Source: Yuukianura sp. NJ FZ-2021 (taxonomy: Eukaryota). From it: a stretch of 64,000 nt of DNA. This document shows positions 35,344 through 41,289 of this stretch, piece after piece. The number at the start of each line of letters is the position of its first letter. Within the stretch, counting starts at the first letter, position 1. The stretch covers positions 5,022,001-5,086,000 of the forward strand of contig CM102286.1 in assembly GCA_046563655.1 (NCBI GenBank). Direction: 5' to 3'. A program made the position numbers and the translations under genes. The notes under the pieces are model-generated. The model ran no database searches, was not told where the DNA came from, and saw only the letters and a list, made by a program, of their open reading frames with translations.

Positions 35344-38300
35344 ATGGTTGACAGTATATATCGAACAAGGTCATTGGGAGCCCCGGCTGAAGGATTGAAG
35401 GACCAGTATGCCGACGGAAGGGCCGCTAAGCTTTGGGAAATTTACGTTGGAGACACAAGCTCCAGAACCGAATATTACAAAACGTTTCTGTTCAACTTGC
35501 TCCGACAACACCACTGTTCAAATGTCCTAGACGTGGCTTGCGGAACAGGGTAAATTATTTGCATAAATCAATCAAAGTTAATTAACTTTAATTTTATCGT
35601 ATGTTTCTAATTTACACATTTTCAGTTCATATTTGCCTAGTCACTCATATGCTGATCATGTACTTTGTTACTGTACTTCCAGAATTGATTCTGTAATCCT
35701 TGTGGAGGAAGGTTTCAACGTAACTTCAGTTGACGCTTCTGACAAAATGCTCAAGTATGCACTCAAAACACGCTGGAACAGAAGGAAAGAGGCTAAATTT
35801 GACAGTTGGGGTGAGGTGATACACTTTTCGCAAATTTGAAAAACAAACTGATTATGATGATACTGTTGCACTTAATTTGAAAAGAAAAACGAAAAACTTA
35901 GGTTTTGAAAAGTTATTTTAAGAATTTGCAAACAACAGTTCCGTTATAGGTTGTAATCTCGAATTCTGCAAAGTGTTCGAATGTCAATTTAAAAGTCAAT
36001 TCACGTAACAATGTGGAATAGAAAACCCATTTGAACATGAAACGAATAAAAGACAAGGGCCATTTTTCATATTGTTACAACAAAGTCAATAAGAATAATT
36101 TGGTCCACATGCTCTGCTGCATTTTCAATCAAGAGATACATTTGTGAGTGTATCTTAAGATGAATTGCACTCGGGTCGCAATCTTACCCTCTCTGCAAAC
36201 ATAGATTCAATTTTGCTTGTGCTTAAAACTTAAAAGTGTCAAGTCCAAGCCTATAAGAAGTTGATGGTGCAATAAGTTGATGAAAAAGTGAGCTTCCCTG
36301 AAGTCATTTGTCAAGATTAGGCGTTGTCATCTAAATTATTAGGATGGGCCAAGAATGACATTGACCTTTGACATTTATTTCACAGTGATTGAAGAATCTA
36401 ACTGGTTGACTCTAAATGAAGATCTAGGATTATCCGGTCACTCCAAGCATCCAATCGGATCTCCACCAAATGGATTTGATGCTCTCATCTGCCTTGGAAA
36501 CAGCTTTGCCCACTTACCTGATTTTTCTGGAGATCTCAAAGCAATTAAGTAAGTGCTCTCCAAGGGCCCCCTGCAAGTACCCTTACAATGGAAAGTTAGC
36601 TTTTGTACTTCTTCTGATTACCAAGTAGCTTTTCCTATTCATAAATTGATCAATTCGAACCAATTACACCTTGCCCTACTATGTTGATTTTGTTCTCAGA
36701 ACTGCTTTGAAGAATTTTGCTAAAAGCATTCGTCCGGGAGGTATTGTTGTAATTGACCACCGTAATTATGATTACATTCTGGATACTGGCAACACACCAA
36801 CCAAAAACATCTACTACAGCGTCGTAAGTACCTGATTTTTCAATTTGTTTTTGAGCAAGGCATATCTCAATTGCTTTTCAGATTTTGAATAAGGGGTGGT
36901 CTGAACCATAGATTTTTTAGAAACATCTAAAGCCTAATTTAGACTCCACAAAATCCAAAGGATTATTTTTTTGGCCAAACTTTTTTTTTTCGGAGTGTTT
37001 GCTCATTTTATATTGGAAACGCCTCTGTTGACCTAATTTAGCGAGAAAAAATTACTTATGCCAAAAATTTTGAAAAAATCCAGAATTCGGTGATTTCGGT
37101 TTTTTGAGACTTTTTTCATAACGCCTGAGTCTCATGTTATAAATATGAGAATTTAGAATGAGTAATGATATAGTAAGCCCATTTCTTCACTGCATTGCAT
37201 TGCGAATTCGCTCTTTATTGACCGGTTGAGCACAGCAAAAGCATAGAATCAAACTGAGCCAACATATTGACTGACGTGATACGCGGTGCTTTGACCTTGA
37301 GGATTACGCTTCCACGTTGAAACCATCATGTGGAGGTCATTTCGTTTAGACGTTGACCAGGGATGAATGAATCCGCCGTAGAGTGCGGATTCTTGCCACG
37401 CAGTAACTTGTACCTTCTCTTCCGACCATACCCGATCAGGTCCTGTTGCTTTACGAGACACAATGCATCCTATGTCCACGTTCAAGTACACCATGACCCA
37501 AGTCCCATCGCTCAATTTTCGTACTGAAGGCTCACCAAATCTTCCAGACAAAATTGGCGTACAAGGATTTCCCCAAGCCCAATTCCCTCCAGCATATCCC
37601 CAGCACTGGTACTCTCCTGGATAAAACAGTCTGTTCCAGTTGACGCGTTGAAGCATCATGGGCCCAACCTGTCGACCTGCTCTTACCGAAAATATGTAAA
37701 CCCAGTCTCCATCTCGTTGCATTGTCCACATCTGAAACGGGTCACTATTTTGACCATTATTTTCCCACTTCAAATTGGTACGAAAAAAGTCGTTGCCATT
37801 GTCCGAGTAAGCGAGTCCAGCGTAGCGTGACTTCCAACCTGACCGATTTGGACCAGACTCATTGTCATACCAAACCTCAATACTCATGTACGACACAATT
37901 TGACGCCCTGTTTCTGGAAAACTAATTCCATCATTGGGAATCACAGTGACTTCAAATCTTCCCTCGTGGTCGGGTCCCCTGAGCCCATTGTGCATTATTT
38001 GCGGAGCAAAACCGTCCCCTGCAACTTTGGCCGCATTTTGCCAGATAATCCCGTCTTGCGAGCCGGGGTGACTGTTGGATCGAAGAAGCACGGGTGAGCG
38101 CCAGCCACGCCCTTCTTCGGGCCAAGCAGAACTAAAAGTGTCGCCAAAGAGGTAGCCGATAGAAAGGTTTTCCAATACGTACGGAATTCCAAGATCTGTC
38201 CCGGCAACTTCCCACCGACGAGCAGTATCCAGGTCACCACCGGTTACGCGTTTCTTCCACCGCGCTGCAGGAATTACAAACTGTGCCTCAAAAGTAGGAA

Positions 38301-41289: not shown

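Follow-up and report, generated by a model that had tools for sequence, protein, structure and literature searches.

D-arabinan is, to our knowledge, a polymer of few bacterial groups, and it was not until 2023 that enzymes cutting it were identified. The assayed members of glycoside hydrolase family GH183 (Pfam domain DUF4185) come from five distant lineages including a phage, and all of them are reported to cut D-arabinan and none D-galactan (PMC10115798). Here we describe a DUF4185/GH183 gene in a stretch of 64,000 nucleotides from Yuukianura sp. NJ FZ-2021 (assembly GCA_046563655.1, contig CM102286.1, positions 5,022,001 to 5,086,000 of the forward strand), which is referred to as the window. 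Because the gene is an intact unit, ready for secretion by its predicted signals, and lies antisense inside an intron of the animal gene GNMT, it looks like a kept horizontal transfer and not like contamination. Our reading as a whole, to which we assign a probability of roughly 60%, is that of an old microbial GH183 acquisition, kept by a springtail, whose product would be a secreted endo-D-arabinanase acting against walls of the Mycobacteriales type.

The closest characterised enzyme in fold is EndoMA1 from Microbacterium arabinogalactanolyticum (8HHV/8IC1), for which Asp33 has been reported as the nucleophile, Asp51 as the acid/base and Glu243 as a third essential residue holding Arg198, with Pro141, Arg198 and Leu292 as hydrogen-bond partners and Trp138 and Tyr293 as stacking platforms (PMC10509167). 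For a Dysgonomonas enzyme, two aspartates were reported to be essential and a glutamate to be dispensable (PMC10115798). The springtail protein belongs to the same Pfam family as EndoMA1 and conserves the Asp nucleophile, the Asp acid/base, the Glu-Arg clamp and the stacking Trp and Tyr on a modelled propeller of the same kind. Unlike EndoMA1 it has no C-terminal carbohydrate-binding domain (365 versus 479-488 amino acids), and it carries a predicted eukaryotic signal peptide.

Secreted GH183 enzymes are further described as toxins which some mycobacteria use against other mycobacteria (preprint 10.64898/2026.03.26.714487). In one of them, the type VII-secreted EatA, a GH183 domain damages the arabinogalactan of other cells from outside, as we propose for the springtail protein; according to the same preprint, however, EatA is a bacterial protein whose GH183 domain is joined to a helical domain for secretion targeting and which has a partner immunity protein, and the springtail gene has none of these. 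On the animal side, signal-peptide-bearing glycosidases derived from horizontal transfer are reported as well documented in springtails, and FcAraf43, a GH43 alpha-L-arabinofuranosidase of Folsomia candida, is likewise a microbial five-bladed-propeller glycosidase that was acquired by a springtail, gained a signal peptide and stands among animal genes; it differs in its family, in its mechanism (GH43 inverting, GH183 retaining) and in its substrate, plant L-arabinan instead of the proposed bacterial D-arabinan (PMC9460274). Since the present event fits this known pattern, the surprise lies in the family and the target and not in the mechanism of acquisition. Transferred bacterial wall-degrading enzymes are used against bacteria by ticks and mites, whose dae genes (domesticated amidase effectors) encode peptidoglycan amidases that have no relation in sequence or fold to the springtail GH183 protein.

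Results

The gene and its signals

The gene is composed of the following elements.

37249..38346, minus strand: DUF4185/GH183 coding sequence, intronless, 365 codons, with the ATG at 38346 and a TGA stop at 37249-37251
38401..38408, minus strand: TATAAAAA, putative TATA box 55-62 bases 5' of the ATG, read from the letters, with a presumed promoter function
38344..38350, minus strand: CAAAATG start-codon context, read from the letters
38284..38346, minus strand: predicted secretion signal, residues 1-21 (MYRN, a hydrophobic core at 4-16, then TFEA and, after the presumed cleavage, Q)
37214..37219, minus strand: AATAAA, putative polyadenylation signal 30 bases past the stop, read from the letters

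The frame is already open from an upstream TTG (37249..38367, minus strand, 372 amino acids) and is the longest of the 12 open reading frames (ORFs) of at least 60 amino acids listed between 36000 and 40000. Its product can be aligned over the full length to the bacterial homologues without frame breaks, and the start-codon context corresponds to what we take to be the arthropod-type Kozak consensus. The span 37214..38408 given in a preliminary description of this DNA is the exact run from the AATAAA to the TATA element, and the intact, intronless frame which that description placed between the two signals is borne out by the open frame and by the letters. No second DUF4185 copy was found in the 64-kb window by tblastn, and neither terminal repeats nor a target-site duplication, the signs of a transposon vehicle, were found around the insert.

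As to the signal peptide, which had likewise been proposed, the hydrophobic N-terminus (residues 4-16, Kyte-Doolittle mean up to 2.57) and a site of small residues stand, whereas the cleavage position is a prediction only. Residues 1-20 are of low confidence or disordered in the AlphaFold2 (AF2) model presented below. The bacterial relatives carry twin-arginine (Tat) leaders and the springtail protein a leader of another type; as this eukaryotic leader appears to have replaced a Tat leader, the product is most likely exported.

Integration in the host gene

Three pieces of GNMT (35344-35553, 36343-36552 and 41113-41286, plus strand) align to residues 1-69, 110-152 and 235-290 of solved GNMT chains, and six exons with GT-AG borders throughout join to 306 codons without a stop.

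35344..35549, plus strand: GNMT exon 1, alignment to solved GNMT and splice model
35683..35810, plus strand: GNMT exon 2, splice model
36386..36548, plus strand: GNMT exon 3, alignment to solved GNMT and splice model
36700..36823, plus strand: GNMT exon 4, splice model
36824..39374, plus strand: GNMT intron 4, 2551 bases, host of the antisense DUF4185 gene
39375..39508, plus strand: GNMT exon 5, splice model
41124..41289, plus strand: GNMT exon 6 including the stop, alignment to solved GNMT and splice model

The remaining introns measure 133, 575, 151 and 1615 bases. The model puts the ORF into intron 4 and thus agrees with the earlier claim that it lies antisense between the fourth and the fifth exon. 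Elsewhere the window carries ordinary animal genes, namely NAA35, a FASTK-like gene (FAST-kinase-domain), a P450, PDCD2 and a delilah-like bHLH gene. For the PDCD2 exon the best named match is from Orchesella cincta (243 bits, next named match 173), and for the bHLH protein the best named matches are from Folsomia candida (248 bits), Orchesella cincta (237) and Allacma fusca (187), the next named match after these springtails being a mite protein with 130 bits. By these matches the host, earlier postulated to be a microbe-feeding arthropod, is a soil microarthropod, namely a springtail distinct from the three with annotated genomes.

Independent data were available as Logan contigs of four public runs, of which X1, X2 and X3 belong to one sample and X4 to a second study. 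A single X3 contig of 25,980 bases covers 36300-39338 and 39363-39600 and hence reaches from GNMT exon 3 across the whole ORF into exon 5, with 137 substitutions (~4.5%) and 74 gap letters against the window; it joins ORF and GNMT in DNA data independent of the assembly. As all four runs disagree with the window at many of the listed positions, the window was probably built from other reads, and the runs would represent another individual or haplotype. The depth of the ORF compared to that of GNMT, in per-contig figures, was ~177 versus 183 in X1, 60.9 throughout in X3 and 22 versus 12.6 in X4. From X4 short pieces of the ORF were recovered, together with a piece of the 3' border which has 27 letters inside the ORF and was not counted as a bridge under a 31-letter rule.

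The composition of the gene is that of its host. GC content at third codon positions (GC3) is 0.454 in the ORF and 0.37-0.44 in four host coding stretches, and the observed/expected ratio of CpG is 0.92 in the ORF and 0.91 in the window. For comparison, 44 bacterial homologue loci from one metagenome scan showed a GC3 of 0.59-0.98, with 43 of them at 0.73 or more.

Bacterial contamination, or an assembly chimera of a microbial gene and animal DNA, would agree with the fact that the closest named proteins are from soil actinomycetes, at ~70% identity. It is nevertheless extremely improbable, because the GC3 lies outside the range of the 44 bacterial loci, the gene and its flanks recur together on an independently assembled contig from a diverged individual or haplotype, the depth of the ORF equals that of GNMT, the leader is no bacterial Tat leader and the ORF is enclosed by two exons of a single gene whose GT-AG splice sites are intact. 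The gene is integrated in the animal genome, and the earlier argument that embedding in an ordinary spliced gene speaks against contamination is strengthened by the X3 contig, the equal depth and the host-like GC3.

In the same intron, just 5' of GNMT exon 5 (39338-39363), the X2 and X3 contigs have 65 other bases in place of 24 bases of the window, which is an indel polymorphism.

Constraint on the coding sequence

Among the differences listed between the window and the run contigs, 20 of the 22 in the ORF are synonymous, the other two being D202N and R29Q, and the listed indels number 12 in the flanking intron and none inside the ORF; this is a sample, with 127 further substitutions and 28 further indels beyond those listed. 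Such a pattern is expected for coding sequence under constraint and reveals selection against amino-acid change. The full compositional amelioration together with the intact frame speaks for a long residence under selection, and the DUF4185 feature is, judged from its sequence, very probably a functional gene.

A transferred insert which is now silent or decaying, without present function, would find a suitable place in an intron, where neutral insertions are tolerated. We consider it very unlikely with respect to the frame, which is open over its full length with all catalytic residues kept, to the completed amelioration, to the mostly synonymous listed variants with indels crowding the flanks and sparing the ORF, and to the new eukaryote-type predicted signal peptide with TATA and AATAAA elements around the frame.

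Family, fold and active site

The protein matches Pfam PF13810 (DUF4185) with an E value of 4.1e-67 and 227 bits (cut-off 39.5), residues 39-361 covering positions 4-308 of the 309 of the profile, and a sequence search of the PDB returned the endo-alpha-D-arabinanase EndoMA1 (8hhv, E 1.9e-28). An AF2 model derived from a 100-sequence alignment is all-beta and of high confidence (pLDDT 94.9, pTM 0.90). Its first three Foldseek matches in the PDB were 8ic1 and 8hhv, both EndoMA1 (TMq 0.78, root-mean-square deviation 2.6-2.7 A, 28% identity), followed by 8an0, the endo-D-arabinofuranase AraH2 of M. tuberculosis (TMq 0.58); BACOVA_04882 and then GH43, GH62 and GH32 propellers and sialidases came after these. 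According to the model, the DUF4185 protein is a five-bladed beta-propeller like EndoMA1 and AraH2. The proposed membership in DUF4185/GH183 was thus confirmed by the Pfam profile as well as by EndoMA1 in both the sequence and the structure search, and the structure prediction that had been suggested gave the fold of EndoMA1. From the sequence alignment the following codons were assigned.

38194..38196, minus strand: D51 codon (GTDLG), aligned to EndoMA1 Asp33, the nucleophile; at least 90% conserved in 100 family members
38140..38142, minus strand: D69 codon (FGDTF), in the alignment the counterpart of the EndoMA1 acid/base Asp51; conserved to at least 90% among 100 sequences
37531..37533, minus strand: E272 codon (GEPS), aligned to EndoMA1 Glu243, the third essential carboxylate; invariant in 100 sequences

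D51 and D69 are spaced by 18 residues, as are Asp33 and Asp51 of EndoMA1, and the crystallised EndoMA1 mutant 8ic1 (D51N) departs from 8hhv exactly at the D69 column. R225 is aligned to EndoMA1 Arg198 and nearly invariant in the 100 sequences. Of the eight EndoMA1 residues with roles reported above, seven (D33, D51, E243, R198, W138, L292 and Y293) face the same amino acid in the HMMER alignment, the cleft residues W159, L322 and Y323 of the springtail protein corresponding to Trp138, Leu292 and Tyr293. The eighth, P141, is not conserved and is replaced by Asn; the loop of this residue is reported to be altered in the active toxin EatA as well (preprint 10.64898/2026.03.26.714487). The Asp of GTDLG and the Glu of GEPS had been put forward as the catalytic pair. 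The former is retained as the nucleophile, whereas the latter is an auxiliary residue and the acid/base is the Asp of FGDTF.

Relatives and donor

The database search gave 445 matches, the best 120 of which are 58-81% identical to the springtail protein. Named matches among these 120 are from Actinomycetota (Catelliglobosispora, Micromonospora, Salinispora, Kribbella, Streptomyces sp., Pseudonocardiaceae, Acidimicrobiales), from Myxococcota (Labilithrix, to which a Kofleriaceae member was added by cluster look-up) and from ascomycete moulds (Aspergillus, Penicillium, Pseudogymnoascus, Thermoascus, Madurella, Arachnomyces). No animal protein is found among the named matches of the best 120 of the 445, with proteins of Folsomia, Orchesella and Allacma present in the same database, and the description of the family as microbial holds insofar as these named relatives are all bacteria or fungi.

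The secreted DUF4185 proteins found in Micromonosporaceae, in Kribbella and Tenggerimyces and in some Myxococcota are 66-72% identical over the mature protein, of the same length and equally without extra domains. They differ by their twin-arginine leaders, by a GC3 of 0.73-0.98 and by the lack of both the Cys at EYQCWG and the NLS sequon of the window's clade. The fungal proteins (Aspergillus, Penicillium, Pseudogymnoascus, Thermoascus and others) show that the same subfamily occurs in eukaryotes and with a Sec-type signal, at 60-67% identity, but they stand apart as a clade of their own, in which the W..W loop is shortened and the GDDG.G motif altered.

The nearest sequences of all are P0002 (81% by BLASTP) and P0392 (82-83% in alignments), both with Sec/eukaryote-type leaders, and next come P0007 (73% by BLASTP, 71% in alignments) and then P0050, P0051 and P0062. 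P0002, P0392 and P0007 are absent from the 44 metagenome loci, which are all high-GC and bacterial. A careful tree of 53 rows (LG+G4; 20 of 73 rows were dropped) united the window with P0392 and P0002 (support 100/97) within a seven-member clade of non-Tat proteins (98/96) and recovered the fungal clade (90/97), with a polytomy as its backbone. The seven members share EY.CWG, GNPCT and a longer W-Y loop, and an ENLS sequon is common to the window's quartet. As a conjecture, other springtails may be the source of the six clade-mates, which would then be orthologues; this fits the identities of the best unnamed matches of two host genes (77% for PDCD2, 61% for bHLH).

Two faster trees were set aside with respect to their backbones, because a constrained search gave a better tree than the quick search: FastTree (129 rows) nested the window's clade among Tat-bearing bacteria, and a quick IQ-TREE run (73 of the 129 rows) placed it near the root, beside long outgroups.

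The phylogeny asked for in the preliminary description therefore sets the springtail gene in a supported seven-member clade; with a polytomy as the backbone and with fungal constraints that pass, the donor may have been a bacterium or a fungus. A coding sequence obtained from a fungus, or by way of another eukaryote, instead of directly from a bacterium is compatible with the polytomy and with the trio forced together with the fungal clade (p-AU 0.465, not rejected), and forcing all seven members together with the fungi even gave a tree (p-AU 0.736) that surpassed the result of the quick free search by 21.9 log-likelihood units. Moreover, three of the seven (P0050, P0051 and P0062) share ENGAIGF with the moulds, and springtails are, as is generally known, grazers of fungi. 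We nevertheless regard this origin as rather unlikely. Identity reaches 72% to the bacterial P0003 and ~70% to Catelliglobosispora and Micromonospora versus 60-67% to named fungi, the window keeps bacterial-type loops including W..GP..W, which are changed or deleted in the mould clade, and the fungal and the seven-member clade are separately supported. A bacterial donor is thus favoured by the higher identity and the bacterial-type loops.

Substrate and gene context

The proposed reaction on D-arabinan is deduced from the activity common to all assayed GH183 enzymes and from the residues kept in the cleft. The bacterial neighbourhoods were analysed for 12 of the 44 loci, picked for long flanks. 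Of 97 ORFs predicted there, 47 were scanned, after setting aside opposite-strand shadow ORFs, the DUF4185 genes and small ORFs far from them. The bacterial orthologues are stand-alone secreted genes without a context conserved across the 12 loci; they occur with GH3 and a beta-lactamase-fold protein, with a GH38 mannosidase, with lipases and a subtilase, or with a sugar ABC transporter.

In one locus (L005:1258-8067), secreted lipases neighbour the orthologue along with a subtilase and a beta-helix protein, and in another (L007:1530-4886) the neighbour is a GH38 alpha-mannosidase. The neighbours could constitute a secreted set attacking lipid- and mannan-rich envelopes, or their presence could be coincidence.

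Several points weigh against D-arabinan as the target and against our reading in general. The assayed GH183 enzymes are only ~28% identical to the springtail protein, and no characterised member of its close subfamily (58-83% identical; Micromonosporaceae, Kribbella, Myxococcota, Aspergillus and others) was found in the literature searched. No GH172 or GH116 partner is encoded within 5 kb in the 12 bacterial loci (47 flanking ORFs), hence the gene context gives no independent support for a D-arabinan substrate. An endo-enzyme alone yields oligosaccharides and not food. The replaced P141, the per-contig nature of the depths and the sampled variants count on the same side.

Consequently, a transfer that is genuine and kept has also to be considered with another substrate, a different furanoside-containing microbial glycan such as those in walls of other actinomycetes or of fungi, the enzyme then serving a general digestion of microbial biomass. 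Besides the low identity to the assayed enzymes, the varied contexts of the orthologues and the absence of GH172/GH116 beside any of the 12 loci, this explanation draws on the many moulds that also keep the subfamily and on a report that one GH family may hold very different activities (preprint 10.64898/2026.03.26.714487). The uniform activity of the assayed GH183 enzymes on D-arabinan, with none on D-galactan (PMC10115798), and the fact that the springtail protein retains both catalytic residues of the EndoMA1 cleft (nucleophile and acid/base), its Glu-Arg clamp and its pair of stacking aromatics argue against it, and we judge it to be distinctly unlikely.

Further features of the window

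An intronless 471-codon frame at 26695-28110 (plus strand) encodes a cytochrome P450 in its full length (Pfam p450 with 181 bits, covering positions 7-451 of the 462 of the profile). As its neighbours are otherwise multi-exon animal genes, the frame may be a retrocopy, or else just a P450 gene that has no introns. At 29308-30603 (plus strand), a 431-codon frame is rich in C2H2-like CxxC...H motifs and serine/threonine tracts and has no Pfam match at an E value of 0.001 or better. Between PDCD2 and GNMT, a tandem array (34255-34561) holds 5.2 copies of a 59-base unit which are 98% alike. A (GACG)n microsatellite of ~32 units at 34721-34847 gives rise to TDGR and PSVR repeats in several frames and thereby to spurious ORFs.

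Discussion

The events at this locus can be summarised as follows. In an old transfer, a GH183 (DUF4185) gene of microbial origin would have entered a springtail genome and been retained there as a gene of the animal, in the form of a single-exon unit flanked by TATA and AATAAA elements and placed antisense in GNMT intron 4, with an ordinary eukaryotic secretion signal in place of the bacterial twin-arginine leader. The predicted product would be exported to the gut lumen or the body surface and act as a retaining glycosidase, with D51 as the nucleophile attacking the anomeric carbon, D69 as the acid/base and E272 as the residue that fixes R225 at the sugar chain. Judged from the family, its most likely reaction would be the endo-cleavage of alpha-1,5-D-arabinofuranan, the arabinan of arabinogalactan and lipoarabinomannan in Mycobacteriales-type actinobacteria. 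Cutting of this arabinan may loosen or strip the outer envelope, in feeding on these bacteria or in defence against them. A use by an animal in defence or for lysis is plausible because the secreted GH183 protein EatA acts as a toxin on arabinogalactan.

With respect to earlier work, no printed report of GH183/DUF4185 in an animal was found in titles and abstracts (subscription journals and further supplements may list some), nor anything on GH183 in the springtail horizontal-transfer literature on arabinan. The terms DUF4185, PF13810 and IPR025442 do not occur in two supplement files of the Folsomia genome paper. In a survey of carbohydrate-active enzymes in 815 arthropod proteomes, the list of GH families ends at GH172 and contains no GH183 column (supplement of PMC11543626), and the account of Al-Jourani and colleagues, in what it says of eukaryotes, speaks of "microbial eukaryotes" only (PMC10115798). 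The GH172 column of that survey supplement covers a family which includes exo-D-arabinofuranosidases working with GH183.

More tentatively, and as a possibility to which we give somewhat less credence than to its opposite, the protein may be the first known animal endo-D-arabinanase, secreted by springtails or by one lineage of them as a weapon or digestive tool against arabinogalactan-walled actinobacteria (Mycobacteriales, among them Rhodococcus, Gordonia, Nocardia, Corynebacterium and environmental mycobacteria). It would be comparable to lysozyme, for walls that lysozymes handle poorly, and would have descended vertically since the old transfer. If this is true, soil microarthropods have taken up, beyond plant- and fungus-degrading enzymes, tools aimed at a specific type of bacterial wall. 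The finding would then add to our picture of how springtails exploit or resist actinobacteria, and it would provide enzymology with a eukaryote-adapted, secreted, single-domain GH183 enzyme.

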